Shown here piece after piece: positions 7,276 through 48,769 of a stretch of DNA of 64,000 bases. Location: assembly GCA_035575135.1 (NCBI GenBank), contig DATLYE010000057.1, forward strand, positions 13,961-77,960, read 5' to 3'. Position numbers and translations under genes: made by a program. Each line of letters opens with the position of its first letter. Within the stretch, counting starts at the first letter, position 1. The notes under the pieces are model-generated. The model did not search any database. It was not told where the DNA came from and was given only the letters and a program-made list of their open reading frames with translations. This DNA comes from Bryobacteraceae bacterium. GTDB taxonomy: Bacteria; Acidobacteriota; Terriglobia; Bryobacterales; Bryobacteraceae.

Positions 7276-7292
7276 GACGCCACCGGCTGAGC

Positions 7293-8730: not shown

Positions 8731-9327
8731 ATGAAGCCAACTGCATGGATGATCGCGGTGCTGATTCTTGGGGCGAGTGTCAACGCAGGGTGGTCCCAAG
8801 AAGAAGGCTGGAAGCGCATTTTCGACGGCAAGACGCTCAAGGGGTGGAAGGCCAGCGAGAATCCGGAGAGCTGGAGCGTGGAGGACGGCGCCATCGTGGG
8901 CCGGGGCCAGCGCAGCCACCTGTTCTACATGGAGGAGGAATGCGAGAACTGCGAGTTCAAGGCCACGGTCAAGATCAACAAGGGCGGCAACTCGGGGATG
9001 TATTTTCGGGCCCAGTTCGGTCCGGGATGGCCGAAGGGCTACGAGGCCCAGGTCAATAACAGCAGCAAGGACTGGCGGCGCACCGGGAGCCTGTACGGGA
9101 TCGTGGACATCAAAGAGCAACTGATTCCCGACGACACCTGGTGGACGCAACACATCATTGCCGACGGCAACCATATCGTCATCAAGGTCAACGACAAGGT
9201 GGTCGTGGACTACGTGGACGAGCAGAACCGTTACACCAAGGGGTACCTGGCCTTGCAGCAGCACGACCCGCAGAGCGTGGTTTACTACAAGGACATCATG
9301 ATGAAGAAGCTGCCGGCGAAGAAGTAA
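8731..9327 (+). CDS. DUF1080 (3-keto-disaccharide hydrolase-like) domain secreted protein
   Basis: SD aggagga upstream of ATG 8731. Signal peptide MKPTAWMIAVLILGASVNA. Blocks GWK..WSVEDGAIVG, GGNSGMYFR and GYEAQV characteristic of the family. Confidence 0.85.
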   Translation: MKPTAWMIAVLILGASVNAGWSQEEGWKRIFDGKTLKGWKASENPESWSVEDGAIVGRGQRSHLFYMEEECENCEFKATVKINKGGNSGMYFRAQFGPGWPKGYEAQVNNSSKDWRRTGSLYGIVDIKEQLIPDDTWWTQHIIADGNHIVIKVNDKVVVDYVDEQNRYTKGYLALQQHDPQSVVYYKDIMMKKLPAKK

Positions 9328-9397
9328 CGAAAAAAAGGGGACACACCAGGCTGACAGAATTTCCGAAAAAAGGGGACACACCAGGCTGACGGAATTT
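9328..9397. repeat. Tandem direct repeat (35 nt + 34 nt) filling a convergent intergenic spacer
   Basis: Copy 1, 9328-9362: CGAAAAAAAGGGGACACACCAGGCTGACAGAATTT. Copy 2, 9364-9397: CGAAAAAAGGGGACACACCAGGCTGACGGAATTT. They differ by one A in the A-tract and one A/G. The pair lies exactly between the stop codons at 9327 and 9401. Confidence 0.9.
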
Positions 9398-9400
9398 TGG

Positions 9401-28870: not shown

Positions 28871-28886
28871 AGGCGTACGTACGCCT
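28871..28886. repeat. Perfect 16-bp palindrome AGGCGTACGTACGCCT
   Basis: Self-complementary as read directly. Overlaps the stop codon (28885-28887) of the upstream receptor gene and lies about 170 bp upstream of the next receptor gene's ATG. Confidence 0.9.
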
Positions 28887-31800
28887 ACCACAGCACCTTG
28901 AGTCCGAACTGGATCTGGCGCGGAGTGTTGGCCTGGGAGCTGATCACGCCGAAGGTCGAAGAGGTGACGCTGGTGTTTGGCGTACCGAACCGCGGCGTGT
29001 TCCAGGCGTTGAAAAACTCGGCCCGGAACTGGGTGGTGACACGCTCGGTCACGTAGAAATCTTTGAGCAGCGAAAGGTCCCAGTTTCTGACGCCGTCGTT
29101 ACGGATGTCGGGCGAGTAAGGCGAGTGATTGCCGAAGGTGAACGGCGCCGGCTGGCTGAAGACGCTGGTATCGAAGTACTGGTTGAGGCGGTCCTGAACG
29201 CGTCCGGTCTTCCTGCCGCTCCGGCCGTTATTGTTCGGCAGGGTCATGGGCGCGAAGATGCCGGAGGTGTTGCTGGCGGAAATGGCAATCGGAGCGCCGC
29301 TCTGGTACGTGACGATGCCGTTGACCTCCCAGCCGCCGAGCAGAAATTGGGCTGCGCTGCGCAAATCGGTGGCGAAGCGGCGGCCGCGGCCGAACGGCAA
29401 CTGGTAGACGAAGCCCATCACAAAGCGGTGGGCGATGTCGTCGGGGGAAAGCGAGCGGCTGGCGCGCACGTCGTAAGTGTTCTGGTGGCTCCAGCCCGTA
29501 TCGAGCAGTTTGGACCAGGTGTAGGAACCCTCAAAGAGGAGCCCGCCGGAGAACCGCCGTTTGATCGTGTTCTGCCAGGAGTGGTAAATGGAGCTGCCGC
29601 CGGCATCGTACAGCGGGATGATATCGGTGAACTGGGGATAGGGGCGTAGGAGCTGGGCCCGGGCAATGCGTCGTGAAAGATGCACGCCGTTGTTGACGAT
29701 GCCGAAGAAGGGGTTGTCCACCTGCTCGTTCAAGGCGGATCCGAGAGCCATGTGCTTGGGATCGAGCTGGTTGAGGTTCATCCCGCTCTCGGTGCTGCGG
29801 TGGAGCTGGAGTCCGCGATTGCCCACATAGGCGGTTTCGAGCAGGATGCCGCCGGGCAATTCCCGTTGCACCGAGAAGTTCCACATCATGTTCCAGGGCG
29901 AGGGCGATTCGTGGAGGAACGCCTGCAAGTTCGCTCCGGCCTGGGTCAGCAAGCCGTCGCGGTGGCCGGGAACGTCGCGGAAACCCTCCGGATAGGGATT
30001 GCTCAGGCGGTTGAAGGGTGTGATGCCGTCCACAGTAGTGACCCACAAGTACTCGACGCGGAAGCCGAACGGACCCACGGTTCCCTGCGCCGCCTGGCGC
30101 GAAGGGCCGAAGAAATGGCCGTAGCCGGCCCGGATCACGGTCTTGCGGTCCAGCTGGTAAGCCAGGCCGATGCGCGGCGCGAGGTTGTTCAAGTCTTTGC
30201 GGAACTGGTGGCGCGGATTGCCGTCTACGCCGACGAAGCGCACGCCGCCGCTCAGGTTGGGGAATCCGGGCACGACGCCGGCCAGCGGCGAGCGGGCGAA
30301 CGGATCGAACCAGTTCATCCGGTTGTAGCGTTCCGTTCTGGGGAAATCGATCTCGTAGCGCACGCCGAGGTTCAGCGTCAGTCTGGAGGTGACGCGCCAG
30401 TCGTCCTGGAAGTACCAGCCGTGATAGAAGCTTTGCGAAGCCACGTTCTTCCAGTTGCGGATCAGCGTATTGCCCGTCGTTCCCGTGCCGAGCAGCAGCG
30501 AGGCGATGCTGTTGCCGGCGTTGGCGCTGGCCCGGTTGGGATCCGGTCCCTGGGTGAAGCCGGCGCTGAAATTGAAGGTGCCGGCGGCGCGCGCCTCCCA
30601 GACGTTGACGCGGATCAGGCGGCCTTCCCAGCCGAATTTCAAGGCGTGGTCGCCCCGGATTTTGGTGACGTTGGCCAGCGCGGTGTAGGTCATGAAGGCG
30701 TTCCAGCGGTGGTCGTTGCCGCCGAGGTTGACGTAGCCGGAGGCGCCGAAGCGGGGGAACATCCAGCGGTCCACCACGGAATCCACGGCGGAAGGCAGCC
30801 CGAGGCTCGAGGGCTGGAATCCGAGACCCTGGTTGTCGAACATGAACAGCGATCGGGAAAAGCCGAGGCGCGCCGTCAAAATCGTGGTGGGGCTCAGCGT
30901 ATTGGAATAATCGAGTGCGGCCGATGGCTGGTGGACGCCTTCATTGACCCGGCCTTCGGCAATGGCCAGTTCCCCCGGGAACAAGGGCGGCGGTGCATTG
31001 ATGTTGTCGCGCCAGGAGAACCGGCCGAAGAGCCGCTGGGCGGCCGTGAGGTTATAATCCACGCGGCCGTCCAGCTGGTTCTGATCGAAGCGGTGCGCTC
31101 CGGTGGCGAAATAATTGTTCCGTTTGGTCACCGGATCGCCGGGCGTGTTCGGTTCCGGGAAGTAGCGGATGACGTTGCGGGCCACGGGATCCTGCATCAC
31201 CGGAGGGATCACGTTGCCCGGGAACGGATCGCGGATGAAGCCGCTGCCGGAGGGGTTGCGACGCGTAGTGAAGGGGTCGAAGATCTGGACGAGCCGGCCG
31301 TTGGAGGCCAGGGTTTGGGAGAAATCGCCCTGGCGTTCAAGCAGCGTCGGCACGCTGGTGGTCGTGCTGGTGAAGCTCCGCTGCCGCAAGGCTTCGTAGC
31401 TGGCCAGGAAAAAGAGCTTGTCCCGCCGGATGGGGCCGGCCACGTGTGCGCCGAACTGGTTGCGTTTGAAGCTGCCCAGGGGCTGCCCCAGGCGGTTGGC
31501 GAAAAAGTTGTTGGCATCGAGGGCGGAGTTGCGGAGAAACTCGAAGGCGCTGCCGTGCAGGTCGTTGGTGCCCGATTTGTAAACGACGTTGACCACGCCG
31601 CCGTTGCTGCGGCCGAACTCCGCCGAGTAGTTCGTTCCGAGGACGCGGAACTCGGCGATGGCGTCCACGGGAGGGAACGTGGAGTTGCCCGAGAAGCCGT
31701 TGACGGTGGGGTGGGCCGTGCTGACGCCGTCCACCAGGATGTCGAGCATCGAGGTCCGTGCGCCGTTGATGGCAAAGCCCGTCGTGTAGGTGGAGCTCAC

Positions 31801-32292
31801 ACTTCCGGTGACGCCGGGGGTCAGGTAGAGAAGGGTGTAGACGTTCCGCGAATTGAGGGGCAGCGAAACGATGCGCCGGTTGTCCACGACTTTGCTCAAG
31901 CCGGATTGGGTGGTCTCGAGCATCGGGGCGTCGGCAACCACTTCGATGGATTCGGTCACTTCGCCCACCTGGAGCGTGACATCCACGCGCGCGTGCCGCT
32001 GAATGTCCACCCGGATGCCGCGCTGGAGAAATTTCTTGAACCCGGAAGCCGAGACTTCCAGAGCGTACTCGCCCGGGGGCAGCTCGCCGGCGGCATAGTT
32101 GCCGTTGCTTTCGCTGGTGACGACGAGCGTGCGGTTGGTCCCGAGGTGGGTGATTTTGATCTCGGCGGAGGGCACGACCGCGCCGAGGGGGTCGGTGACG
32201 GTGCCGTAGATCCGCCCGGTAAAGGACTGCGCAGCGCAGTGTGCGGCCACCAGCGCGGCGGCGACGAACAGACGAAGGACGGTAAGGGACAT
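28885..32292 (-). CDS. TonB-dependent receptor-like outer membrane protein with CarboxypepD_reg N-domain (1135 aa)
   Basis: SD AAAGGAG before ATG 32292. Signal peptide [60 protein letters not shown]. Plug block [38 protein letters not shown]-terminal QFGLKVLW. The track extension to 32697 runs antisense into accC and was rejected. Confidence 0.85.
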
Positions 32293-32313
32293 GGACGTGG
32301 CTCCTTTCGGCGC

Positions 32314-32343
32314 ATTGTACCTGCCGGCGCCGGATGGGGTCAA
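32314..32343 (-). promoter_or_regulatory. Candidate sigma70-type promoter for the 1135-aa receptor gene
   Basis: The minus strand reads TTGACC-N18-TACAAT (-35 at 32343-32338, -10 at 32319-32314), followed by AAAGGAG and the ATG. The -35 overlaps the accC stop codon. Confidence 0.45.
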
Positions 32344-33707
32344 ACCGCTGCCGGAGCAAGGCGGCGGCGGCTCAAAAAGCGCTCGATGAAATGGGTGTCC
32401 AGTCTGCCGGCCAGGAATTCTTCGTCCTCGAGGATGCGCTGGTGGAGCGGAATCGAGGTGTGGATGCCTTCGATGACGAACATTTCGAGGGCCCGGCGCA
32501 TGCGGGCGACGGCTTCGGCGCGGTCGCGGCCGTAGGTGATCAGCTTGGCGACCAGGGAATCGTAGTAGGGCGGGATCACACAGTCGGTGTAGGCCGCCGT
32601 ATCCACCCGCACGCCGATTCCGCCGGGCACGTTGAAGGCGGTGATGCGGCCGGGCGAAGGAGCAAACGTCTCGGGGTGTTCGGCGTTGATGCGGCACTCC
32701 AGGGCATGTCCGCGGAGGGTAACGGGCGAGGGGATGAATTCGCGCAAGGGTACGCCCGCAGCGGCCAGAATCTGGCCTTTCACCAGGTCCACTCCCGTGA
32801 CAAACTCCGTGACGGGGTGCTCGACCTGAATGCGCGCGTTCACTTCGATGAAATAGAGGGCGCCGGAGTCATCCATGAGAAATTCCACGGTTCCGGCGTT
32901 GGTGTAGCCCACATCATGGAGCGCCTTGCGCAGGCGGTCGGACATGTCCTGGCGCAGGGCGGGCGTCATGACCGGAGAGGGAGATTCCTCGATCAGCTTC
33001 TGGTGGCGCCGCTGGATGGAGCATTCGCGCTCGCCGAACACCTCCACGTTGCCGTGCTCGTCGGCCAGGATCTGGAACTCGATGTGCCGGGGCGCGGGGA
33101 TGAATTTTTCCAGATAGACGTCGGGGCAGGAGAAGGCTGCGGCTGCCTCCTGCTGCGCCTGGATGAACAGGGAGGGCAGTTCGGAAGCCTCGCGCACCAC
33201 TCGCATGCCGCGGCCGCCGCCGCCCGCGGAAGCCTTGAGCATGACCGGGAAGCCGATGGCGCGAGCCGCCTCGAGGGCCTCCTCCGCGGAGCGAACCACA
33301 CCCTCCGAGCCGGGCAGCACCGGTACGCCCGCCGCAGCCATCGCCGCCCGGGCCTTGTCTTTCACGCCCATCAGGCGAGTGACTTCAGGGCGCGGCCCGA
33401 TGAACTTAATGCCGGAGAGTTCGCAGACTTCGGCGAACTCGGCATTCTCGCTCAGAAAACCGTAACCGGGGTGAATGGCCTCGGCATTGGTGATTTCCGC
33501 TGCGCTGATGATCGAGGGGATCTCCAGATAGCTCTTGCTGCTCTTGGCCGGCCCGATGCAGACGGCTTCGTCGGCGAAGCGAACGTGCAGGCTGTAGCGG
33601 TCGGCTTCCGAGTATACGGCCACGGTCCGGATGCCGAGTTCCTTGCAAGCGCAGATGACGCGGAGGGCGATCTCTCCGCGGTTGGCGATCAGGATCTTGC
33701 GAAACAT
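32340..33707 (-). CDS. accC: Acetyl-CoA carboxylase biotin carboxylase subunit
   Basis: [26 protein letters not shown].. N-terminus and ATP-grasp blocks ([10 protein letters not shown]). 455 aa. Follows accB. Confidence 0.96.
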
Positions 33708-36827: not shown

Positions 36828-36931
36828 ACGAGCGACCGATAGGGTAGCACGGCCGGGACAGATTCGTGCACGCCTGCGCTAATGCGTTGACCCACAGGCA
36901 CCGATCAGTACGGGGGTCCTCTGAAGATTCC

Positions 36932-38515
36932 ATGGTGTGCGCTCCCGATCGGGGCAAGACGGTGAAGTGGAGCGGGTGGTTGTCCCCCTCGTTGAGCGAC
37001 TGCTATCTGGTTGCGCTGCTGGCCTGGCTGTTTGCCGCCGGAGCCGGCTGGGAGGGGCTGCTGGCTGACGGCGACACGGGCTGGCACATCCGCACCGGCG
37101 ATTACATTCTCGAGACGGGCTCGATTCCGCGCCAGGATCTGTTCTCCTACACCCGGCCGGGCGAGCCCTGGTTCGCCTGGGAATGGCTCTCGGATTTGAT
37201 ACTGGCCTGGGTTCATCGCCAATGGGGTTTGCCGGGCGTCGCGGCGTTGGCAGGCGTCGTGATCGCTTCGGCCATGCTGGTTCTGTTCCGGTGGATGCTG
37301 TGGCGGGGAACGAATTTGTTCGTAGCGCTCGGGGTGGCGCTGCTGGCGGCCGGAGCCAGTTCTATTCACTTTCTGGCGCGGCCTCACGTGGCGACGTTAC
37401 TGTTGCTGCCGCTGTCGCTGTGGGCCGTGGAGCGCGACCTCAAGCGCGAGGGCGGCCGCCTGTGGCTGCTGGTTCCGCTGAGTGTGCTCTGGACCAATCT
37501 GCACGGCGGCTTTTTGGCGCTGCCCGCGACGCTGGCCGCCGTGGCGGCGGGGCTGTGTGTGGAAACGCTGCGGCGGAGGCGGGGTGAGCGCAACTGGCGC
37601 CGCCCGCTGCGATATGCCGTGCTGGCGGGCGCCTGCGGGCTGGCTTCGCTGTTGAACCCCTACGGGGCGGCCTTGCATGTGCACGTGGCGGGCTATCTGA
37701 ATTCCGATTGGATCCGCAACGTGGTCATGGAGTTCCGCGCGCCCAGTTTTCGCACCGAAAATCAGTTGCAGTTCGAGGCGTTGCTGCTTGGGGGGCTGCT
37801 GGCGGCCGGATGGCGGCTGTCGCAGGGGCGCATCCACGAAAGCCTCCCGGTGATTCTGTGGGCGCACCTGGCGCTGGGCTCGGTGCGCCACGCGCCCCTG
37901 TACGCGGTGGTGGCGGCTCCGCTGGTGGCTTCTGCGCTGAGCGAGCTGTGGGAGAAGTGGGAGGCCAGGGCCGGGCGGGGCTCGGTCGCGGCCGTGCTGG
38001 GGGCTGTGGCGCGCGATTTCGGCGCCCGAGGGGGCCGCCTGACGCCGTGGGCGGCGGCGGGCGTTGCGGCCGTGCTGCTCCTCACGCCGGAGCAGAAATG
38101 GCCGCGCGATTTTCCCGACCATGCCTTTCCGACCTCGCTGGTGCGCTCGCAGGCATCGCTGTTGCGCCAGGGGCGGGTGTTCACCTCCGATGAGTGGGCC
38201 GACTATCTGATCTACCGCAACTGGCCGCGGCAGCGCGTCTTCATGGACGGGCGCAGCGACTTTTACGGTCCCTCGATCGGCAATCAGTACATTGCGCTCA
38301 TGCAGGCGCAGCCGGGCTGGGAGCGGATCCTGGCCCGCTATGGCTGCGACGTCGTGCTGGTGCCGGCCCGCTGGGGGCTTGCCGCGTTGCTCGAAGCCGA
38401 CCCTGGATGGCGACTGGTTGCCGCCGACGGCCGGGCCAAGCTGTTCCGGCGGGCCGGCCCCCCAACCTCTGTGAAGGGAGAGCGCACTAATCTGACCGCT
38501 CGTTCCTACCGATAG
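36932..38515 (+). CDS. Polytopic membrane protein with C-terminal soluble domain (GT-C-like putative glycosyltransferase)
   Basis: About 10 or more hydrophobic segments. First-loop motif DGDTGWHIRTGDYILETGSIPRQDLFSYT. C-terminal non-membrane domain of about 120 aa. The start is uncertain (ATG 36932 or GTG 36866). Confidence 0.55.
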   Translation: MVCAPDRGKTVKWSGWLSPSLSDCYLVALLAWLFAAGAGWEGLLADGDTGWHIRTGDYILETGSIPRQDLFSYTRPGEPWFAWEWLSDLILAWVHRQWGLPGVAALAGVVIASAMLVLFRWMLWRGTNLFVALGVALLAAGASSIHFLARPHVATLLLLPLSLWAVERDLKREGGRLWLLVPLSVLWTNLHGGFLALPATLAAVAAGLCVETLRRRRGERNWRRPLRYAVLAGACGLASLLNPYGAALHVHVAGYLNSDWIRNVVMEFRAPSFRTENQLQFEALLLGGLLAAGWRLSQGRIHESLPVILWAHLALGSVRHAPLYAVVAAPLVASALSELWEKWEARAGRGSVAAVLGAVARDFGARGGRLTPWAAAGVAAVLLLTPEQKWPRDFPDHAFPTSLVRSQASLLRQGRVFTSDEWADYLIYRNWPRQRVFMDGRSDFYGPSIGNQYIALMQAQPGWERILARYGCDVVLVPARWGLAALLEADPGWRLVAADGRAKLFRRAGPPTSVKGERTNLTARSYR

Positions 38516-38651
38516 AACGCCAGGAGGAGTCCCGAGATGAACCAAGGAGCCAGTCTCGGCTGCCAGAGGGTCTGGGAAACGGGCCCGGCGCGGATGTGCT
38601 GCGGCGCGTCGCGGAGACGACACGGGTGAGGGGGGAGGAACGAGGGACTCT

Positions 38652-39530
38652 ATGGACCGCAGATTCATAACCGTTCTCGGCGTGAGCCTGCTGTTTGCGC
38701 TCATTGTTTCGAGCCTTTTTTATCAGGTGAGCCGCGGGCGCCGGTCTTCTCCCCGTGCGGCGGCGGTGCCGATGAAGGACGTGGTGGTGGCGGCGCGGGA
38801 GCTGGAGGTGGGGGCCACGATCCGCCCCGAAGACGTCAAGGCCGCCAAGCTGCCGGCTCCGCTGGTGCCGCAGGGTTCGTTTGCCCGCGTCGAGGAGGTG
38901 GTGGGGCGCCCGGTGACCAGCAAGATTCTGGCGGGCGAGCCGGTGCTGGCGGGCCGGCTGGCCGAACGAGGCAGCGGCTTCGGTCTGGCGCCCATCATTC
39001 CGACGGGCATGCGGGCGGTCTCGGTGCGGGTCAATGACGTCGCCAATGTGGCGGGCTTTGCCCTGCCGGGCATGCGGGTGGACGTGCTGGCGACGTTGCG
39101 GCCTCAGGGCGAGGAGGGACCTCGCACGACCACGGTACTGCAGAACATCCTGGTGCTTTCGGCCGGACAGCAGCTCCAGCCGGATGCCAGCGGCAAGCCG
39201 ATCAACGTGCCGGTGGTGACGCTGCTGGTGACGCCGGAGCAGGCCGAGACGCTGACGCTGGCGAGCAATGAGGGGCGCATCCAGCTGGTGCTGCGCAACG
39301 CGACCGATAAAGAGGTGCAGAAGACGCCCGGAAAGGCTCTGGCCGAACTGTACGGCGCGCCAAGGCCGGTGGCGCGGCCCGTGCGGGCTCCGGCGCCGGT
39401 CAGGGCCGCCGCGGCTCCGCCGCCGGCTCCACCGCCGCGGCCGGCGGTGGAACCGGAACCGGAGCAGATCGTGGTCATCCGCGGCACACAGAAAACCATC
39501 GAGGTGTTGGGCAATGCCAGGTCCAATTGA
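38652..39530 (+). CDS. cpaB: Flp/Tad pilus assembly protein CpaB (RcpC)
   Basis: N-terminal TM segment. SAF-like VVVAARELEVGATIRPEDVKAAKLP. Block MRAVSVRVNDVANVAGFALPGMRVDVLAT. Pro/Ala-rich tail. Confidence 0.88.
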   Translation: MDRRFITVLGVSLLFALIVSSLFYQVSRGRRSSPRAAAVPMKDVVVAARELEVGATIRPEDVKAAKLPAPLVPQGSFARVEEVVGRPVTSKILAGEPVLAGRLAERGSGFGLAPIIPTGMRAVSVRVNDVANVAGFALPGMRVDVLATLRPQGEEGPRTTTVLQNILVLSAGQQLQPDASGKPINVPVVTLLVTPEQAETLTLASNEGRIQLVLRNATDKEVQKTPGKALAELYGAPRPVARPVRAPAPVRAAAAPPPAPPPRPAVEPEPEQIVVIRGTQKTIEVLGNARSN

Positions 39531-40809
39531 CAGATTCGGCCGGCTGGCGGTGGCGTTGCTTATGGCCGCGGCTGTCGAGGCGGCCGAGCGGATCGAGCTC
39601 ACCGTGGGGGGCAGCGCGGTGATTGACTATCCGGCGGGAATCAGCCGCATATCTACCAGCAATCCCGAGGTCGTTGACCCCGTGCCGGTCAGCAAGCGGG
39701 AGGTGCTGCTGCAAGGCAAGTCCTACGGCCTGGCGACGGTGGTGATCTGGGGCCCTTCCGGGGAGCGGACGTTTTACTCGGTTACGGTGGGCCAGGATCT
39801 GGAGCCGTTGCGAAAGCTGTTGCGGGAGACCTTCCCGAACGAACGGATCGAAGTGCAGGCCGGGCGGGATGCCATTGCGCTGACCGGGGAGGTTTCCACC
39901 CCTGCGGTGGCCGAACGGGCGGTGGCGCTGGCGAGTCCGTTCGGCAAAAGCGTGGTCAACCAGCTTCAGGTGGCCCGGCGCGAGGCGGAAAAGCAGGTGT
40001 TGCTCCGGGTGCGCTTTGCCGAAGTGGACCGCAATGCGGCTTCGGCCCTGGGGGCGAATGTGATTCTGACGGGCGCGCTCAACACGGTGGGACGCACGAC
40101 CACCGGCCAGTTCCCGGCGCCGAATCTGGCGCAGGCCGGCGCCGGAACCTCTGCGGTCTTCACGCTCAGCGACGCCCTCAACGTGTTTGCATTCCGGCCT
40201 GACTTGAATCTGGGCGCCTTCGTGAAAGCGCTCCAGACCCAGGGGCTGCTGCAGATTCTGGCGGAGCCCAACCTGGTGGCGACGGAAGGCAAAGAGGCCA
40301 GCTTCCTTGCCGGGGGCGAATTTCCGGTGCCGGTGGTGCAGGGGGGCGCCAATGTGGGGGCCGTGACGATCCAGTTCCGGGAGTTCGGAATCCGGCTGTC
40401 GTTCACACCGCTGGTGACCGATCGCGACACCATCAAGCTGCATGTCAAACCCGAGGTCTCCTCGCTAGATTTTGCCAACGGCATCCAGATTTCCGGCTTT
40501 GTGGTCCCGGCGCTTTCGACGCGCCGCCTGGAGACGCACATCGAGCTACGCCAGGGCCAGAGTTTCGCGATTGCGGGGCTGTTGGACGACCGCGTGACGG
40601 AGAACCTCTCGCGGGTGCCCGGTCTGGCGAGCATTCCGCTGCTCGGGGCTTTGTTCAAGAGCCGGCAGGTGAGCAAGTCCAAGACGGAGTTGTTAGTGCT
40701 GGTGACGCCGGAAATCGCCCGGGCGGTGGAGGCCACTGCGGCGCCGTCGCTGAAGATGCCGCAGGAGTTTCTGAAACCGGAAGGCGAGGGTGGGGCGCAA
40801 CGGCGGTGA
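39514..40809 (+). CDS. cpaC: Tad secretin CpaC/RcpA (type II/III secretion system secretin family)
   Basis: Signal peptide. Pilus-formation N-domain (IELTVGGSAVIDYP..ISRISTSNPEVVD). Secretin core (LLQILAEPNLVATEGKEASFLAGGEFPVP, VPGLASIPLLGALFKS). 17-nt overlap with cpaB. Confidence 0.9.
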   Translation: MPGPIDRFGRLAVALLMAAAVEAAERIELTVGGSAVIDYPAGISRISTSNPEVVDPVPVSKREVLLQGKSYGLATVVIWGPSGERTFYSVTVGQDLEPLRKLLRETFPNERIEVQAGRDAIALTGEVSTPAVAERAVALASPFGKSVVNQLQVARREAEKQVLLRVRFAEVDRNAASALGANVILTGALNTVGRTTTGQFPAPNLAQAGAGTSAVFTLSDALNVFAFRPDLNLGAFVKALQTQGLLQILAEPNLVATEGKEASFLAGGEFPVPVVQGGANVGAVTIQFREFGIRLSFTPLVTDRDTIKLHVKPEVSSLDFANGIQISGFVVPALSTRRLETHIELRQGQSFAIAGLLDDRVTENLSRVPGLASIPLLGALFKSRQVSKSKTELLVLVTPEIARAVEATAAPSLKMPQEFLKPEGEGGAQRR

Positions 40810-40834
40810 GCAGGAGAGATTGTCCGACACGGTC

Positions 40835-42019
40835 ATGGCGGGGCTGCGAGCCATTCTGATTGCGCCGAACCGAGCTCTGGCGGCAGAGTTCCGCGGGAGT
40901 GTGAAGGCGAGCCGTGTCTTTGAGATTGTCGGGGATCTGGAGCACTATCCGGAGCCGCGGGCACTCGAGCGCGGAGTGCGGCAGTTGCGGGCCTCGGTCG
41001 TGCTGGTGGACATCTCGGCCGACCGCCAGGCTGCCGGTGAGCTGTTGCGTCTTGGCGCGTCGCAGCGCTGGGGAGTGCCGGTTGTGGCGCTGCACACGGC
41101 TCAGGATCCGGAGGCGGTTCTGTGGGCACTCCGCCAAGGCGCCAGTGAGTTTTTGCACGCGCCGTTTGAAGCGACTGCGCAGAAGGAAGCCGCCGAGGCG
41201 CTGCTGCGGCTGGGCGCCCCTGTGGAGACGGCCGAGCGCCAAGGACGGGTGCTGGCCTTTTCGAGCGTCAAGCCGGGGGCGGGAGCGACGACGCTAGCCT
41301 GCCACACCGCGCTCGAGCTGAAGCGGTTGACGGGAGAGGAGGTTCTGCTTGCGGATCTTGACCGTACGGCGGGGATGGTGGGCTTTTACCTGGGGATCCG
41401 GGCGACGCCCAATGCCGAAGATGCGCTGGCCCAGGTCGAGGCTCTCGACACGGCCCGCTGGACTGCGCTGACCACCCCGTGCCGGGGTGTGGCGGTGTTG
41501 CCGGCCCCGACGGCGCCGCCGGAGACTTCGTTCCAGCCGGGGCGGCTGGAGGAGCTGCTGGCAGCGGCACGCCGGGCCTACGACTGGGTGATTCTGGATC
41601 TTCCGGCCGCCTTCCACCGGCACAGTCTGCAAGTGTTGTGGAGTGCGGACACGTCGTTTCTGGTGACCACGCCGGATTTGGCCTCGCTTTATCTGGCACG
41701 GAAGGCCGTCCGCCTGCTGTCGAGCCTGGGCCTGACCGAGGAACGGGTCCGGATGCTCGTCAACCGCCAGGTGGCCGCGGCGGAGCTGGGGCCGACGGAG
41801 CTCAGAAAGATTCTGGAGTTCCCGGTTTATGGATCCTTTCCGGAGGGCGGCGACTCGGTCTCGCAGGCTCTCACGAGCGGGAACGGCCTGGAGCCGGGCA
41901 GTGCGATGGAGCAGGCCATCGGGGAGTTTGTGGCGGGCCTGGCGGGGGTGTCGGGAGAAGTCAAGCGCTCGGGGTTGTCCTGGGGCGCCGGGCTGGCGCT
42001 ATCCGGGATCCGGGCCTGA
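40835..42019 (+). CDS. cpaE: CpaE/TadZ-type pilus assembly ATPase-like protein (atypical receiver + MinD/ParA-like domain)
   Basis: Receiver-like N-domain (ILIAPN..VVLVDIS..). Deviant P-loop FSSVKPGAGATTLA. Position between the secretin and cpaF. Confidence 0.8.
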   Translation: MAGLRAILIAPNRALAAEFRGSVKASRVFEIVGDLEHYPEPRALERGVRQLRASVVLVDISADRQAAGELLRLGASQRWGVPVVALHTAQDPEAVLWALRQGASEFLHAPFEATAQKEAAEALLRLGAPVETAERQGRVLAFSSVKPGAGATTLACHTALELKRLTGEEVLLADLDRTAGMVGFYLGIRATPNAEDALAQVEALDTARWTALTTPCRGVAVLPAPTAPPETSFQPGRLEELLAAARRAYDWVILDLPAAFHRHSLQVLWSADTSFLVTTPDLASLYLARKAVRLLSSLGLTEERVRMLVNRQVAAAELGPTELRKILEFPVYGSFPEGGDSVSQALTSGNGLEPGSAMEQAIGEFVAGLAGVSGEVKRSGLSWGAGLALSGIRA

Positions 42020-42032
42020 GGAGGAGTGAACG

Positions 42033-43391
42033 ATGCCAGTCGAAGAGCGGTTGCGTGCCACGGAGACGAGCTGGGAGCAGCGTCTGCTGAGGGACACGGG
42101 ACGGCTGCGGGTGCCGCTCAAAGCCGAAGCCCAGGAACTGAAGTTCCGCCTGCATCGCAAGCTGCTCGAAAAGATCAACCTGGACGCCCTGGCGATGATT
42201 GACGATCAGCGCGTGCGCACGGAGGTGCGCCAGGCGCTGGTGTCGCTGCTCGAGGAGGAGCCGACGCTTTTGAGCGCGGCCGAAAAGCAGCAGATCTGCG
42301 AGGAGGTGCTGCATGAGGTCTTCGGGCTGGGCCCGCTCGAGCCGCTGCTGGCCGATCCCACCGTCTCCGACATTCTGGTGAACACGCACAAGGCCGTGTA
42401 TGTGGAGCGCGGGGGAGTGCTGGAGCTGACCAATGTCGTCTTCCGCGACGACAACCATCTGCTGCGGATCATTGACAAGATCGTTTCGCAGGTGGGGCGG
42501 CGGATTGACGAATCCACGCCCATGGTGGACGCGCGGCTCAAGGACGGCTCGCGGGTCAACGCCATCATTCCGCCGCTGGCGGTGGACGGGCCGCTGCTGT
42601 CCATCCGCAGGTTTTCGGTGGACAAGCTGATGCCCGCCGATCTGGTGGAGCGCAAGTCGCTGTCGCCGGGGATGATGGAACTGCTCGAGGCGGCGGTGCG
42701 GGCGCGGCTGAACATCATCATCTCCGGGGGCACGGGCGCCGGCAAAACGACGCTGCTCAACGCTCTTTCGGCCTTCATCTCGCCCAAGGAGCGCATCGTG
42801 ACCATTGAAGACGCGGCGGAGCTCCAGCTCAAGCAGCCGCACGTGGCGCGGCTGGAGACGCGCCCGCCGAACCTGGAAGGGCAGGGGGCGGTGCGCCAGC
42901 GGGAGCTGCTCATCAACAGCCTGCGCATGCGTCCGGACCGCATCGTGGTGGGCGAGGTGCGCGGCGAGGAGGCGCTGGACATGCTGCAGGCGATGAATAC
43001 CGGCCACGACGGCTCGCTGACCACGATCCACGCCAACTCGCCCCGGGATGCCATTTCGCGTCTGGAGGTGATGGTGTCGCTGGCCAGCGCCAACATGCGG
43101 CTGAGCGCCATCCGCCAGCAGATCGCCAGCGCGGTGCAGCTGTTTGTGCAGGTGTCGCGGCTGAGCGACGGGGCGCGGCGGGTGACCAGCATCACGGAGG
43201 TGACCGGCATGGAGGGGGACGTGGTGACGCTGCAGGACCTGTTCGTGTTCGAAAAGCTGGGGCTGACGCCGGAGGGACGCGTCCGGGGTCGGTTTGCGGC
43301 CACGGGCATCCGGCCGAAGTTCTACGAGCGGCTGCTGGCGGCGGGCATCCGGCTGCGGCCGGAGTTGTTTGACGAGGTGGTGGAGGTTTGA
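42033..43391 (+). CDS. cpaF: CpaF/TadA secretion ATPase
   Basis: Walker [15 protein letters not shown]. Blocks [24 protein letters not shown] and [12 protein letters not shown]. Confidence 0.95.
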
Positions 43392-43395
43392 AGTC

Positions 43396-44364
43396 ATGCT
43401 GACGGTTGTCGTCGCCGCCGTCGCCTCCTGGCTCTGTGCGGTGCTGTGCTGGTGGTTGCTGACGCGACTCTGGCGCAAGTCCGAGATCAAGCGGTTTCAG
43501 GACCGCCTGGGCACCGCTCCGGCCCGGAAGAGCAAGAAGGCGGAGGCGCCGGTGCTGCTGCCGCGGGAGGACACCGAGACCGGGCGGCTGGTGCGGCGCA
43601 TTCTGGAACGGTTCCGTCTGGATGCGAAGCTGGCGCTGCTGATCGAGCAGGCCGACCTGCGCTGGCACGTGGCGCGGATGATTCACGGTTCGCTGGCGCT
43701 GTTTCTGGCCGGCTTCGCCGTGGTCTGGTACGTGACTCCCGCCTGGCGGATGCTGGCTCTGCCCGTAGGGGCGCTGGCCGGGGCGCTGCCGCTCCTCTAC
43801 GTCCTGCGCCGGCGCCAGGCGCGGTTGCGGCGGTTCGAGGCGCAGTTTCCCGAGAGCCTGGATTTTGTGGCGCGCTCCCTGCGCGCCGGTCACGCCTTTT
43901 CGGTGTCTCTGGAGATGCTCCACAAAGAGTTCCAGGATCCGCTGGCTGCCGAGTTTCGCAGGACCTTTGAAGAACACAACCTGGGCCTTCCTCTGGAGGT
44001 GGCCCTGGAGAAGCTGGCCAAGCGGGTGCCGTTGATGGACGTGCAGTTTTTCGTGTCGGCGGTGATGTTGCAGAAACGTACGGGCGGCAACCTGGCCGAA
44101 CTGCTGGACAAGCTGGCGTATGTGATCCGCGAGCGCTTCAAGCTGCGGGGCCGGATCCGCGCGGTGAGCGCCCACGGGCGCATGACGGGCTACGCGCTTT
44201 CGGCGATTCCCGTCATGGTGGGACTGATGATGTTTCTGGTCAACCGGGAATGGGTCACGTTTTTCTTCACGGATGAAACGGGCCGCATGATGCTGGCGGC
44301 GGCGCTGGGCTTGCAGGTCATCGGATACGCCGTCATCAAGAAGATCGTCTCGATCGAAGTCTGA
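43396..44364 (+). CDS. tadB: TadB-type type II secretion system F-family inner membrane protein
   Basis: T2SSF pattern (FPESLDFVARSLRAGHAFSVSLE.., QKRTGGNLAELLD). N- and C-terminal TM segments. 4 nt after the cpaF stop. Confidence 0.88.
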   Translation: MLTVVVAAVASWLCAVLCWWLLTRLWRKSEIKRFQDRLGTAPARKSKKAEAPVLLPREDTETGRLVRRILERFRLDAKLALLIEQADLRWHVARMIHGSLALFLAGFAVVWYVTPAWRMLALPVGALAGALPLLYVLRRRQARLRRFEAQFPESLDFVARSLRAGHAFSVSLEMLHKEFQDPLAAEFRRTFEEHNLGLPLEVALEKLAKRVPLMDVQFFVSAVMLQKRTGGNLAELLDKLAYVIRERFKLRGRIRAVSAHGRMTGYALSAIPVMVGLMMFLVNREWVTFFFTDETGRMMLAAALGLQVIGYAVIKKIVSIEV

Positions 44365-44367
44365 GCT

Positions 44368-45285
44368 ATGGAACTGGCCGGCGCAGCGGTGGTGTTCTTT
44401 CTGGTGGCGGCGTTCACCGCGCTGGCGGGGCTGCGGCTGTGGGCGCGTCCGAAGGCGGTCATCGAGCGGCTGACAGGGCCCGGGGTCGAGACGGCTCCGG
44501 TGCCGTCCCATCCGAGCCTGGCGTTTCGCGAGCTGCTCAAGCGGCTGGGAGAGGCGGTGCCGACTCCGAGCAAGGAGGCGGGGCGGCTGGAGCGGCGGCT
44601 GATCCGGGCCGGCTACCGGAAGCCGGGGGCGGCCCGGGTGGTCAACGGGGCGCGGGTGCTGCTGGCGGTGGTAGTGCCGCTGGTGGTTTATGTGGTGATG
44701 CAATCCTGGGCTCCGGGCTCGGAGAACCTGCCCTTGCTGGTCGGTGGCGCGGTGGTGATGGGGTACGCGGCGCCGGGGGCGTGGGTGGACTGGAAGGCCA
44801 AGCGGCGCCAGCGGCGCATTCGGCGGGGCCTGCCCGACGCGCTCGACCTGTTGGTGATCTGCGTGGAATCCGGGCTGGGACTGGATCAGGCGATCATGCA
44901 GGCGGCCAAAGAGATGGAGATCGCCCATCCGGATATCAGCGACGAATTCGCCCTGGTGAACGTGGAGATGAAGGCCGGGGTGCGGCGCGCCGAGGCACTG
45001 CGCCATCTGGGAGAGCGCAGCGGCGTAGACGAACTCAAAAAGCTGGTGGCCGTGCTGATCCAGGCGGACCGCTTTGGCACCAGCGTGGCCCAGAGCCTGC
45101 GCACCCATTCGGACTTTCTGCGCGTGCAAATGCGCCAGAAAGCCGAGGAACAGGCCGCCAAGCTCGGCGTGAAGCTGGTGTTTCCGATCTTCTTCTGCAT
45201 CCTGCCGACGCTGTTCGTGGTGACCGTCGGCCCCATGGCGGTGCGCATCCTGCGGGAGGTGCTCCCCATGATCGCCAACATGTAA
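44368..45285 (+). CDS. tadC: TadC-type type II secretion system F-family inner membrane protein
   Basis: T2SSF pattern (LPDALDLLVICVESGLGLDQAI.., QADRFGTSVAQSLR). 3 nt after tadB. Confidence 0.88.
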   Translation: MELAGAAVVFFLVAAFTALAGLRLWARPKAVIERLTGPGVETAPVPSHPSLAFRELLKRLGEAVPTPSKEAGRLERRLIRAGYRKPGAARVVNGARVLLAVVVPLVVYVVMQSWAPGSENLPLLVGGAVVMGYAAPGAWVDWKAKRRQRRIRRGLPDALDLLVICVESGLGLDQAIMQAAKEMEIAHPDISDEFALVNVEMKAGVRRAEALRHLGERSGVDELKKLVAVLIQADRFGTSVAQSLRTHSDFLRVQMRQKAEEQAAKLGVKLVFPIFFCILPTLFVVTVGPMAVRILREVLPMIANM

Positions 45286-45321: not shown

Positions 45322-45414
45322 ATGGATACGGCGACCATCCGAATCATCTGCGCGGTGCTGGCCGTGGTGCTGCTGGGGCTGATCATCCTGCGCCGCCGGC
45401 GCAGCGCCGAATGA
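45322..45414 (+). CDS. 30-aa single-pass membrane micropeptide (below the ORF-track length cut-off)
   Basis: I translated this by hand: MDTATIRIICAVLAVVLLGLIILRRRRSAE. Strong SD GGAGG at 45310-45314, 7 nt before the ATG. One TM helix followed by RRRR (positive-inside). An intrinsic terminator follows directly. Confidence 0.55.
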   Translation: MDTATIRIICAVLAVVLLGLIILRRRRSAE

Positions 45415-45437: not shown

Positions 45438-45476
45438 GCGGGACGGAGCGGGGCGGCGCCGTCCCGCATGTTTTTT
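45438..45476 (+). terminator. Rho-independent terminator-like hairpin after the tad operon
   Basis: Perfect 9-bp GC-rich stem GCGGGACGG (45438-45446) / CCGTCCCGC (45459-45467), a 12-nt loop, then ATGTTTTTT. Confidence 0.6.
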
Positions 45477-45515
45477 CACTTGTTTCTGAAGTTTTCCCCG
45501 TAAGATTGAGAGTGA

Positions 45516-46445
45516 GTGTGGCGACGCGGCTGTCTCTGTACATGGGTCTTGTTGGCGCTCTGGTACGGCCCGGCCAAGGCTGCGCCGCCAACCAACGCCT
45601 ACGTCGGTAGCGAAGTCTGCCGGAAGTGCCACCCGGACGTCTGGCTCAATTTTTACAAGAATCCCCACTACAAGACCATTGCCTCGGGCAAAGAGCCGCC
45701 GGAGCGCACGGGTTGCGAAGGCTGTCACGGTCCCGGCCAGGCGCACGTTCAGGCGCTCGGCGACAAGGCCGCCATCCGCGCCTTTTCGGAGATGGCGCCG
45801 CGCCAGGTGCTGGACGCATGCCTGGCATGCCACGGCGGGGACATTTCTAAAGTCCACCTGGAGCGCTCCGCCCATACGCTGGCCGGGGTGGACTGTTCCG
45901 CCTGCCACTCCATTCACCGTTCCCCCGTTCCAAAGTTTCTGCTGGCCAAGGTGCAACGTGAAGTCTGCTACGGCTGCCATGGCACGGTGCGCAGCCAGTT
46001 CTCGATGCCCTTCAAACACCGGGTGAACGAAGGCTTCATGGAGTGCACGGACTGTCACAACCCGCATGGTGCGCCGGCGCCGGTGTGGCGGCTGGGATTG
46101 CGGCCGCGCCTGGTCGAGGCGGCACTGGCCACTGAGGAACCCTGCCTGAAGTGTCACTCCGACAAGCGCGGCCCGTTCGCCTTCGAACATCCGGCCGTGC
46201 GCGTGGACGGCTGCGAAACCTGTCATCAGCCCCACGGCTCGATGAACGCGCGCCTGCTGCGGAGGCCGGCGGTGTTCACGCTGTGTCTGGAGTGCCACAC
46301 GGGAATGGGGGACTTCGGAAGGCAGGGAGACGGCATTACGGTGCAGTCGGCGAGTCACGATATGACGAACCCGCGCTATCAGAACTGCACGAGCTGTCAC
46401 GTGCGGATTCACGGCTCGAACGCGGATTCACGGTTTCTGCGATGA
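45516..46445 (+). CDS. DmsE/MtrA-family decahaem c-type cytochrome (MtoA/PioA/MtrA-like)
   Basis: Ten CXXCH motifs: CRKCH, CEGCH, CLACH, CSACH, CYGCH, CTDCH, CLKCH, CETCH, CLECH, CTSCH. Signal peptide ..WVLLALWYGPAKA/APP. Family-typical C-terminus CTSCHVRIHGSN. About 300 aa. GTG start. Confidence 0.88.
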   Translation: MWRRGCLCTWVLLALWYGPAKAAPPTNAYVGSEVCRKCHPDVWLNFYKNPHYKTIASGKEPPERTGCEGCHGPGQAHVQALGDKAAIRAFSEMAPRQVLDACLACHGGDISKVHLERSAHTLAGVDCSACHSIHRSPVPKFLLAKVQREVCYGCHGTVRSQFSMPFKHRVNEGFMECTDCHNPHGAPAPVWRLGLRPRLVEAALATEEPCLKCHSDKRGPFAFEHPAVRVDGCETCHQPHGSMNARLLRRPAVFTLCLECHTGMGDFGRQGDGITVQSASHDMTNPRYQNCTSCHVRIHGSNADSRFLR

Positions 46446-48424
46446 GAGGTGCGGCGCAGGCTCTGGCGCTCCTGTGGGCGGCGATGCAGTTGGCCGCCCA
46501 GCCCACGGTTGCGCCCACGCCGGAAGCTGTCGGTCCGGCGCGCGGCCGCGAGGCCGGAAACTACAACGTCGTGCAGTGGTTCGAGACCGGCTACCGCCTG
46601 CGGTCCGTGGGCGGCAACGCCGGAAAGTACCGCAGCGACGTGAACTTCGGAAACGGGCTGCGGTTACTCGGAGGCCGGCTGAGCGTCAACTCGCGTGACG
46701 GTCACGGGCGGTTCTTCGACGAGATCGTGCTCGGGATGCAAGGCCTGGGCAACGATCCATACCAGCTTTCCTCGCTGCGCGTTCAGAAGAACGGCGCCTA
46801 CCGCTACGACTTCACCTGGCGCCTGGATCAGTACTACAATCCTGCGCTCACCATCGCCGAGGGGCAGCATTTCCTCAATACCGAGCGGCGCCTGCAAGAC
46901 CACGAGCTCACGCTGCTGCCCCAGTCGAGCTGGCGGCTGATCCTGGGCTACACGCGGAACCGGCAGGACGGGCCGGGATTGACCACGGTGCAGCAGTTCG
47001 ACTCGCGCGGCGACGAATTCCCGCTGTTCGCCAACGTCCGCCGCGAACGCAACGAGTACCGGCTCGGCGGTGAGATCCGGCTGTTCGGAGTGCGGCTGAA
47101 CTGGCTCCGGGGTTGGGACAACTACAAAGAGGACACGCGAGCGTTTCTCGGTCTTCCATCGGCGGGCAACAATCCGGCGGATCTGACCGCGCTCGAAGCG
47201 TTGCGCCGCGACGAGCCGTATCGGGGCAGCAGCCCGTACTGGCGCCTGAACCTGCGGGCGGAGGGCCGCGTCTTTGCCGCGAATGCACGCTTTGCGTACG
47301 CGGCGGGGCGCCGCCGTTTTGTCTTCGACGAGAGCGCCTCCGGGATTGACCGTCTGGGCGCGGCGCGCAACCGCCAGATTCTGTTGTCCGGCGCGGGCCG
47401 GCGGCCGGTTGCGGCGGGCAGTCTCACCCTGAGTGTTGCGCCCGGATCCCGCCTGAGGGTGGCAAGCCACACGGCGTTTCACCACACGCGGATGGAGGGC
47501 GATGCCTCGTTTCGCGAGGTGAACAACGCAACGCTCGGAAGCACGCTGGTTTTCTTCCAGTTTCTGGGGATCCGCACCATCAGCCAGACCACCGAGGCAA
47601 CCATGCGTCTGGCCGATCGCGTCGCGATCTACGGCGGCCATCACTACTCGGCGCGGCGCATCCGCTCGCTCGAGCAGTTCCGCACCGGGCCGGTGCTCGA
47701 ACGGTTGCCCGCCGAGCAGGACAACGTGTTCCACTCCGGACAGGCCGGGATCCGGCTGGCGCCGCGGAAGCACCTGAGCGTGAACCTGGAAGCCGAGGTG
47801 GGCCGGGCCGATCGTCCCTTTTTGCCAATTGCCGAGCGCAACTATCACGGTTTTGGGGCGCGCCTGCGGTACCGGACGCGCACTCTCACGTGGTCCGTGG
47901 CGGCGCGGACGAATTACAACACGAACGCTGTGTCGTTTTCGGCTCACAGTTCGCGCAGCCGTAACTATTCGGCGGAGCTTTCGTGGACGCCGGGCAGCCG
48001 GTTTTCGCTGGACGCCGCCTACGGGAAGCTTCATCTGGACACGATTTCCGCTCTGGCCTTTTTCGCGGCGGGCCGGCTCAACTTCCAGGATCGGTCGCTG
48101 TACGCCAGCAACCTGCACAGCGGGACTTTGGGCGCACGCTTTGAGATCGGGCGGGTCAGTTTGTATGCAGGTTACAGCCATGTGGAGGATACGGGCGGCG
48201 ATCGCCGTAGGGCGCCGGGAGCGGTTGCCTCGCTGCCGGCGTTTGTCGCCGCCCAGACGTTCCCGGCGGCTTTCCGCAGCCCGCTGGCTCGCCTGTCGTT
48301 GAGATTGCACAGCAAACTGCGCTGGAATTTCGGCTATCAGTATTACGGCTACCGCGAGGAATTCTCAGGGCGGCAGGGTTACCGGGCGCACACGGCCTAT
48401 TCGAGCGTGCTATGGTCATTTTGA
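46442..48424 (+). CDS. Large outer-membrane beta-barrel protein in MtrB/MtoB/PioB position (porin partner of the decahaem cytochrome)
   Basis: The ATG overlaps the cytochrome stop (ATGA). Signal peptide MRGAAQALALLWAAMQLAAQP. 660 aa with no Cys. Y/R/N/G-rich alternating strands. C-terminal ..YSSVLWSF. Family assignment rests on context and composition, not on a computed alignment. Confidence 0.6.
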   Translation: MRGAAQALALLWAAMQLAAQPTVAPTPEAVGPARGREAGNYNVVQWFETGYRLRSVGGNAGKYRSDVNFGNGLRLLGGRLSVNSRDGHGRFFDEIVLGMQGLGNDPYQLSSLRVQKNGAYRYDFTWRLDQYYNPALTIAEGQHFLNTERRLQDHELTLLPQSSWRLILGYTRNRQDGPGLTTVQQFDSRGDEFPLFANVRRERNEYRLGGEIRLFGVRLNWLRGWDNYKEDTRAFLGLPSAGNNPADLTALEALRRDEPYRGSSPYWRLNLRAEGRVFAANARFAYAAGRRRFVFDESASGIDRLGAARNRQILLSGAGRRPVAAGSLTLSVAPGSRLRVASHTAFHHTRMEGDASFREVNNATLGSTLVFFQFLGIRTISQTTEATMRLADRVAIYGGHHYSARRIRSLEQFRTGPVLERLPAEQDNVFHSGQAGIRLAPRKHLSVNLEAEVGRADRPFLPIAERNYHGFGARLRYRTRTLTWSVAARTNYNTNAVSFSAHSSRSRNYSAELSWTPGSRFSLDAAYGKLHLDTISALAFFAAGRLNFQDRSLYASNLHSGTLGARFEIGRVSLYAGYSHVEDTGGDRRRAPGAVASLPAFVAAQTFPAAFRSPLARLSLRLHSKLRWNFGYQYYGYREEFSGRQGYRAHTAYSSVLWSF

Positions 48425-48427: not shown

Positions 48428-48769
48428 ATGCCGCTCCGCTTCACGCTGTTCAACGCGATCACGCTGGTGATCGCGGCCGTCACGCTCGCAACGGGAGTGG
48501 CGCTGGCGCGCGGCAAGCTGCGGCCCAACTGGCTGCTTGCCTACTACGTGCTCATCACAGCTTACTGGAAGGCTTTTGAGGGAGCTTTGAACGGCGTGTG
48601 GGTCTTCGCCGGCCTGAGCTGCGCCGTGCTTTTGCGATTGAACTTACCGGGAGGCGGCGGGGAGCGCGCCGTGCGGTGGAGCGCGCTGGCTGCTTTGGCT
48701 TACGTCTTCTTGCGGGGCGTGGACCTGATCCTCGGAGGGGAGCTTTTCTACTTACTCTTCCACCGGTAG
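48428..48769 (+). CDS. Hypothetical 113-aa polytopic (3-4 TM) membrane protein
   Basis: Starts 3 nt after the barrel gene's stop. Hydrophobic segments FTLFNAITLVIAAVTLATGVALA, WLLAYYVLITAYW, VWVFAGLSCAVLLRL and ALAALAYVFLRGVDLIL. No haem or metal motif. Confidence 0.5.
   Translation: MPLRFTLFNAITLVIAAVTLATGVALARGKLRPNWLLAYYVLITAYWKAFEGALNGVWVFAGLSCAVLLRLNLPGGGGERAVRWSALAALAYVFLRGVDLILGGELFYLLFHR

Follow-up and report, generated by a model that had tools for sequence, protein, structure and literature searches.

A putative MtrAB-type decahaem-barrel pair in Bryobacterales with a barrel outside the MtrB/PioB family models

We analysed a 64-kb stretch of DNA (64,000 nucleotides (nt) of contig DATLYE010000057.1 from a Bryobacteraceae bacterium, hereafter the window), which encodes a decahaem c-type cytochrome directly followed by a large barrel protein predicted to reside in the outer membrane. 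A preliminary description, prepared from the DNA letters, had read the two genes as a minimal porin-cytochrome pair resembling MtoAB, PioAB and MtrAB. The elements at the locus are listed below.

45448..45477 (+): terminator-like hairpin with a T-run, 8 pairs, 7 of them G-C; would end the upstream Tad pilus operon and parts it from the decahaem gene
45480..45506 (+): putative promoter-like element, TTGTTT-15 nt-TAAGAT, conserved among relatives
45516..46445 (+): MtrA/DmsE-family decahaem cytochrome by model match, 309 amino acids, Sec signal, ten CXXCH motifs, ten candidate distal histidines; matches TIGR03508 and 6r2q_A
46442..48424 (+): predicted outer-membrane barrel, 660 amino acids, no cysteine, 26 predicted strands, unplugged; based on Foldseek, hhalign and AlphaFold2
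48428..48769 (+): small membrane protein, 113 amino acids, 3 nt past the barrel stop; possible third, non-redox component

The open reading frame (ORF) of the cytochrome begins with the GTG at 45516, which is the first in-frame start past the TGA at 45513. Its stop codon, TGA at 46443-46445, shares bases with the ATG of the barrel gene at 46442-46444, confirming the ATGA fusion (46442-46445) described previously. A longer barrel ORF could be read from 46151, but the start at 46442 was preferred because the homologues, 652-670 amino acids in length, align over residues 1-660. The earlier account of both products also held when we re-read the sequence. The upstream protein is a secreted polypeptide of 309 residues with exactly ten CXXCH motifs and a DmsE/MtrA-type C-terminus, and the downstream protein is rich in Tyr (30), Arg (81), Asn (32) and Gly (63), lacks Cys and ends in VLWSF.

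The N-terminus of the cytochrome reads as a Sec signal, MWRRGCLCTWVLLALWYGPAKA, followed by cleavage before APP, and its C-terminus is CTSCHVRIHGSN. The ten CXXCH motifs lie at residues 35, 67, 102, 127, 151, 177, 210, 233, 257 and 291. A chance origin of these motifs is excluded, because a six-frame scan of the whole 64 kb revealed no other stop-to-stop ORF with at least two CXXCH; the only other CXXCH in a coding-like frame of the window belongs to the zinc finger of IleRS. The DmsE-family model TIGR03508, proposed earlier as a check, has a cut-off of 192.2 bits; the protein scored 264.5 bits and aligned with positions 1-257 of the 258 in the model. Among the structures in the PDB, the top match was MtrA from the Shewanella baltica MtrCAB crystal (6r2q_A; expectation value (E) 1.9e-33, residues 30-305 against 62-327), and the next one followed at E 3e-5. 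The NrfB models reached 18-25 bits against cut-offs of 166-184, NrfH was likewise far under its cut-off, and the second-best model, that of the GSU2203 family, scored 218.8 bits, well below its threshold. Public databases annotate such proteins as "DmsE family decaheme c-type cytochrome". By these scores, the cytochrome is a member of the MtrA/DmsE family.

We aligned the decahaem with 73 cytochrome partners of the barrel family described below and with 76 decahaems encoded beside true MtrBs. All ten CXXCH motifs and H51, H77, H120, H134, H168, H184, H225, H240 and H299 were invariant in both the Bryobacterales partners and the MtrB-associated MtrAs, and a tenth non-motif histidine, H281, was invariant among the partners of the new barrel family. 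The conserved pattern fits ten bis-His haems, as are present in MtrA (PMC7198977). Sequence identity amounted to ~66% with the Bryobacterales partners, 38-40% with more distant partners and ~33% with the MtrB-associated MtrAs.

Family and fold of the barrel

The preliminary description had expected the barrel to belong to the MtrB/PioB family, an expectation that was not borne out. Neither the window barrel nor 10 distant members of its family matched PF11854 (MtrB_PioB) at E<=1, and TIGR03509 (NCBIfam) gave no match at E<=10 for the same proteins. These negatives are meaningful because the positive controls scored well: eight true MtrB barrels obtained 457-804 bits with PF11854, and two obtained 563-765 bits with TIGR03509. 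A purpose-built MtrB hidden Markov model (HMM) assigned 1.5 bits to the window barrel, the only subthreshold family matches were Porin_4 (E 0.003) and GSU2204 (E 0.009), and sequence and profile searches of the PDB returned noise only (nanobodies and Alr4995) and no MtrB. As judged by these models, the barrel falls outside the MtrB/PioB family as now defined, which includes MtrB, MtoB and PioB.

The barrel lacks the N-terminal CXXC of MtrB, from which the preliminary description had assigned it to the Fe(II)-oxidiser type represented by MtoB and PioB. This assignment did not survive, as the barrel lies outside that family and all 41 of the PF11854 control barrels, which were taken from metagenomes and are each encoded downstream of an MtrA homologue, carry the CXXC. 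Members of the new family mostly contain 0-1 Cys. The absence of CXXC is therefore a trait of the whole barrel family and is uninformative on the direction of electron flow.

The AlphaFold2 model of the barrel has 26 strands and no plug, and the barrel begins straight after the signal peptide, in agreement with the large, unplugged barrel of about 26 strands anticipated earlier. In addition, the model shows tight periplasmic turns, shortened strands 2-4 and a helical turn in loop 1-2, all of which are traits of the MtrB structure (PMC7198977); its predicted extracellular loops are short. A Foldseek search of the PDB with this model ranked MtrB (6r2q_B) first of 830 matches (E 3.4e-14, template modelling (TM) scores 0.59/0.60), even though the two proteins are just 11% identical. 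Many TonB-dependent receptors followed, with TM scores of 0.37-0.45. We rejected the identity of a TonB-dependent receptor on the grounds of these low scores, the absence of a match to Plug or TonB_dep_Rec, the 26 rather than 22 strands and the lack of an N-terminal domain.

Profile comparison pointed in the same direction. When an 80-member profile of the barrel family was compared with an MtrB alignment by hhalign, the result was 99.2% (E 6.6e-20), co-linear end to end over 578-627 columns, whereas the control with the reversed sequence gave 1.5%. Restricting the profile to members verified to be Pfam-negative still yielded 98.6% (E 1.3e-15). On profile comparison and predicted fold together, the barrel is a distant homologue of MtrB within the same superfamily.

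Conservation of the pair

Close homologues of the barrel number more than 1,000, and all of them lack a Pfam domain; the few with a source name are labelled "hypothetical protein" and come from Bryobacterales. An exhaustive profile search retrieved 1,646 clusters at 50% identity. Relatives of the barrel are encoded in 448 GTDB species genomes, the best 80 of which are all Bryobacterales and include Paludibaculum fermentans as well as metagenome-assembled genomes (MAGs) labelled Ca. Solibacter, Ca. Sulfopaludibacter and Bryobacter. The nearest relatives, with barrel identities of 95-96%, are Bryobacterales (Acidobacteriota) MAGs, which bears out the acidobacterial host suggested at the outset. 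Judged by its profiles and structural model, the barrel defines a large, unannotated acidobacterial family that is a distant and structurally equivalent relative of MtrB. In the literature that we searched, neither this barrel family nor the pair in Bryobacterales had been described; the coverage was incomplete, so an earlier description is possible.

A ten-CXXCH ORF lay directly upstream of the barrel gene in 84 of the 84 Bryobacterales loci with enough sequence, and a ten-haem gene occupied the same position in all six of the distant loci. The flanking synteny (Tad genes upstream; rhodanese and MurA genes downstream) was kept in only about half of the loci. Since the adjacency of the pair is invariant while its surroundings decay, the pairing is functional rather than merely positional. 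Neither an NrfB-like grouping of the cytochrome nor an unconserved gene pair, both raised previously as contrary outcomes, was seen: the NrfB models scored low, and the pairing was found in every locus that could be judged. The pair also seems to have been passed on vertically, at a conserved place in the chromosome and not on a mobile cluster, since the rest of the region consists of housekeeping genes and the G+C content at the third codon position of the pair equals that of its neighbours.

We found no MtrC/OmcA-type surface decahaem in the window and nearly none within 10 kb on either side of the pair in the 84 Bryobacterales loci. Likewise, the window yielded no NapC/NirT protein, no HiPIP and no c-type cytochrome besides the decahaem. 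In a few Bryobacterales loci, a further cytochrome gene with 5 or 7 haems lies within 10 kb (L022 12829-13365 (-), L057 19671-20324 (+) and L068 2516-3175 (+)), and the products of these genes could be partners.

The claim of a minimal pair stood in part. No surface cytochrome or inner-membrane partner is encoded nearby, but a gene for a 113-residue protein is detectable directly 3' of the barrel gene in 71 of the 84 Bryobacterales loci, P. fermentans included. This protein contains 3-4 hydrophobic helices and the motifs NWPLxYY and ALLLRFEF, and has no Pfam or NCBIfam match. We rejected it as a redox partner, as it has no conserved His or Cys; if it is part of the system, its sequence suggests that it may be an accessory, non-redox component. 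The gene is absent from the distant loci L085-L087.

The distant barrels are 700-790 amino acids long, some of them from Pyrinomonadaceae, and each follows a ten-haem gene encoding ~340 residues. A Crp/FNR-type regulator is encoded upstream in five of the six distant loci. Three of these loci (L085, L168 and L170) encode proteins of ~540 residues with three N-terminal transmembrane helices, one CX3CH and 6-7 CXXCH motifs. This is the architecture of ImcH, in which three transmembrane helices are combined with one CX3CH and CXXCH motifs (PMC6295460). The same group of loci also contains genes for a CbcL-like protein, in which eight c-haems are fused to a b-type membrane domain, for c7-like multihaem proteins and for ResB/CcsA (system II) cytochrome maturation. 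The ImcH-like and CbcL-like genes near the distant pairs lie at the following positions.

L085: 11956-13590
L168: 10202-11815 and 11927-13870
L170: 10160-11827

By gene content, these three loci amount to complete sets for extracellular electron transfer. According to Zhong and Shi, no mtrAB adjoins imcH (PMC6295460). The new barrel family appears from these loci to be an exception to that rule, overlooked because the models do not recognise the barrel, and the earlier report would have to be revised accordingly. In L168, the decahaem-barrel pair is present as a tandem duplicate (3276-6490 and 6961-10148).

Candidate function and its alternatives

From the family assignment and the modelled fold, we consider it probable that the pair forms an MtrAB-type porin-cytochrome conduit across the outer membrane. 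Given the family membership of the cytochrome, the distant homology and fold of the barrel and their strict pairing across Acidobacteriota, we infer insertion of the decahaem into the barrel and electron transfer. In this scheme, the decahaem would be exported by Sec, matured in the periplasm and threaded into the lumen of the 26-strand barrel, where ten bis-His haems would span the outer membrane, with haem 1 toward periplasmic donors and haem 10 exposed at the surface. As the neighbourhood contains no gene for an MtrC-like surface cytochrome, electrons would pass directly between the exposed end of the decahaem and partners that are soluble or colloidal, for example chelated Fe(III)/Fe(II), humic quinones or shuttles. 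The quinol/quinone partner in the inner membrane would be encoded elsewhere in the genome, and the 113-residue membrane protein might contribute as an accessory, non-redox part.

Several results weigh against this interpretation. The barrel is missed by both PF11854 and TIGR03509, as are its distant relatives, and the confidence of its AlphaFold2 model is moderate (predicted local distance difference test (pLDDT) 75.9; predicted TM score (pTM) 0.66). When hhalign was run with the 26 close relatives alone, the signal was weak in local mode (15.7%), and the 90.8% obtained in global mode is poorly calibrated; the relationship between the barrel and MtrB is therefore a distant one, at the superfamily level. 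The AlphaFold2 model of the decahaem, predicted without haems, was unusable for a fold search (pLDDT 44, pTM 0.25). In addition, no periplasmic or inner-membrane partner is encoded in the window, and the pair alone is no predictor of Fe(III) respiration, because MAGs with the labels Bryobacter and Ca. Solibacter have it too.

As for direction, we lean toward outward flow, that is, respiratory electron disposal under O2 limitation, because ImcH-like proteins and Crp/FNR regulators are neighbours of the pair in distant relatives and because the pair is present in P. fermentans. P. fermentans is a cultured Bryobacterales Fe(III) reducer, and Fe(III) reduction sets it apart from the other described Bryobacterales (PMC8407742). 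Inward uptake is clearly the less probable direction. The preference for outward flow is tempered by the occurrence of the pair in lineages not known as iron reducers and by the reversibility of Mtr-type conduits (PMC8805035).

The strongest competing explanation keeps the same architecture and reverses the flow: like MtoAB and PioAB, the pair would take electrons from Fe(II), reduced humics or minerals outside the cell and pass them to the respiratory chain. Such a role would agree with the lack of an MtrC-type surface cytochrome nearby, a feature shared with MtoAB and PioAB, with the conservation of the pair in lineages described as aerobes (PMC8407742) and with the reversibility mentioned above. 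However, no MtoD, PioC/HiPIP, MtoC or CymA-type carrier is encoded in the vicinity, and the distant members adjoin Crp/FNR regulators and ImcH-like proteins, which have so far been tied to quinol oxidation only (PMC6295460); the missing CXXC carries no information in either direction. We regard this explanation as rather unlikely.

Less probable still is a DmsEF-like delivery module, in which the wire would serve a dedicated surface or extracellular enzyme or cytochrome encoded elsewhere without reacting directly with the substrate. The DmsE family provides the best model for the decahaem, a Shewanella core of the same type serves several surface partners (PMC8805035), and the extra 5-7-haem genes near a few Bryobacterales pairs (L022, L057 and L068) would suit such a module. 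Nevertheless, almost none of the 84 Bryobacterales loci contains a candidate partner within 10 kb on either side, and the short predicted extracellular loops would leave little docking surface in comparison with MtrB. That the two genes are mere neighbours, with the decahaem acting in the periplasm as a soluble, NrfB-like carrier and the barrel as a porin or transporter that has nothing to do with it, would accord with the failure of every curated decahaem-associated barrel model and with the TonB-dependent receptors listed by Foldseek, but is highly improbable in view of the low NrfB scores, the top rank of MtrB with TonB receptors clearly worse, the start of the barrel right past the signal peptide without Plug or TonB domain, the ATGA overlap and the adjacency that persists in very distant members while flanking synteny decays.

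The MtrAB-type reading can be set against several known systems. Compared with the MtrAB core of Shewanella MtrCAB (PDB 6R2Q; PMC7198977), the ten motifs and distal histidines of the decahaem align, the predicted barrel has the same 26 strands and tight periplasmic turns with MtrB as its best PDB match, and the gene order, cytochrome then barrel, is the same. In contrast, the pair comes without MtrC, the decahaem is just ~33% identical to MtrB-associated MtrAs, and the barrel, only 11% identical to MtrB, is recognised by neither PF11854 nor TIGR03509, lacks the N-terminal CXXC and has shorter predicted surface loops. MtoAB of Sideroxydans and PioAB of Rhodopseudomonas likewise consist of two genes without a surface cytochrome; their decahaems belong to the family of the window decahaem, and their barrel has been modelled with 26 strands (PMC10654088). 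MtoB and PioB, however, belong to the MtrB_PioB family, unlike the window barrel, and no MtoD, CymA or PioC gene adjoins the pair here; nothing in our data supports Fe(II) oxidation as in MtoAB or PioAB.

A further MtrCAB lineage, "Group 5", has been described from Acidobacteriia/Bryobacterales (Baker et al. 2022, PMC8805035). It comes from the same bacterial order as the window and likewise joins an MtrA-family cytochrome to an outer-membrane barrel. Its cluster, however, is a canonical mtrCAB that includes MtrC and, downstream of mtrB, a tetrahaem; Baker et al. found it in 5 genomes and ascribed it to horizontal transfer (PMC8805035). The present pair lacks MtrC and the tetrahaem, has a barrel of another family and occurs in 448 species genomes.

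The Geobacter proteins GSU2203 and GSU2204 resemble the pair in that GSU2203 is the second-best model of the decahaem (218.8 bits). The GSU2204 model NF041027, run on the window (46442-48421), P0306 and L101 2732-4819, gave weak matches to the window barrel (E 0.009), a distant member (2.4e-6) and a true MtrB (2.6e-9). All of these scores fall well short of the cut-offs (325 and 350 bits), and GSU2204 proteins carry CXXCH or selenocysteine, in contrast to the Cys-free window barrel. These cross-matches suggest a third branch of the same superfamily, and GSU2203/GSU2204 may be another MtrAB-like pair. The Geobacter porin-cytochrome complexes (Pcc; OmaB-OmbB-OmcB and ExtABCD) share the principle of a porin sheathing a periplasmic multihaem protein, and the ImcH-like and CbcL-like neighbours of the distant pairs recall the Geobacter pathway. 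Pcc, however, combine an octahaem with a smaller porin and a dodecahaem of the outer membrane, and none of the three is homologous to Mtr (PMC4282303, PMC6344600), whereas the window decahaem is clearly MtrA-type.

In its widest form, the proposal is that of an old, vertically inherited acidobacterial branch of MtrAB, with a barrel invisible to all current MtrB/PioB models, no surface cytochrome, a small membrane subunit of its own in Bryobacterales, and wiring to ImcH-/CbcL-like quinol oxidases in other Acidobacteriota; to us the case for this and the case against are evenly balanced. If true, hundreds of mostly "aerobic" soil and peat Acidobacteria species would possess an unrecognised route for electrons to or from iron and humics, and surveys that look for extracellular electron transfer with HMMs would consistently count too few of them. 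The Bryobacterales rank among the most common bacteria of soil and peat, habitats in which the redox cycling of iron and humic matter controls the turnover of carbon and the release of methane. Such surveys seek MtrB through PF11854 or TIGR03509, and the FeGenie paper names TIGR03509 as the available mtrB model. As neither can detect the barrel, surveys of iron and humus electron exchange probably miss this Bryobacterales group. For P. fermentans, the pair would also be a molecular candidate for Fe(III) reduction that can be put to the test, and it would extend the Mtr superfamily far beyond Proteobacteria in a seemingly vertically inherited form.

Transcription and surroundings of the pair

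The promoter-like element upstream of the decahaem gene ends 9 nt before the GTG start. TTGTTT-TAAGAT is conserved in the window and in the relatives L005 and L001, and L059 has TTGTTT..TATAGT; in the 48 nt that separate the start codon from the terminator, a strict sigma-70 scan called no promoter. A hairpin and T-run equivalent to that at 45448-45477 is also present in L005 and L001. Such sites were not more frequent in the region than expected by chance (5 found against 4.1 expected), so the hairpin is suggestive only. From these elements, the pair probably has its own promoter, with a very short or absent leader. An FNR/CRP box occurred upstream of the decahaem gene in 3 of 80 Bryobacterales loci (one of the 80 segments, that of L060, was mis-extracted) as compared with 31 of 400 control segments, indicating no enrichment.

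The Tad/Flp pilus operon upstream is complete at 36866-45285 (+) and encodes CpaB, the CpaC secretin, a CpaE-like ATPase, CpaF, TadB and TadC; it is preceded by a gene for a 549-residue protein without a Pfam match. A hydrophobic ORF of 30 amino acids, MDTATIRIICAVLAVVLLGLIILRRRRSAE, lies after tadC and before the terminator-like hairpin, at 45322-45414 (+), and a 30-residue gene was called at the equivalent position in L003 and L004. We rejected a functional tie between the Tad operon and the pair on account of the intervening hairpin, the genes inserted between them in L003 and L004, and the adjacency of the two in only 44-45 of 80 loci.

Further upstream, two very large TonB-dependent receptors of the CarboxypepD_reg type are encoded in tandem at 26193-28703 (-) and 28885-32697 (-) (836 and 1270 amino acids); such tandems are typical of Acidobacteriota. 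Finally, the segment 16632-20992 (-) encodes a BadF/BcrAD-type ATPase of 1021 amino acids with a DUF2229 "CoA enzyme activase" domain, together with a partner of 432 amino acids, which suggests a radical or dehydratase activase system amid otherwise aerobic-looking genes.

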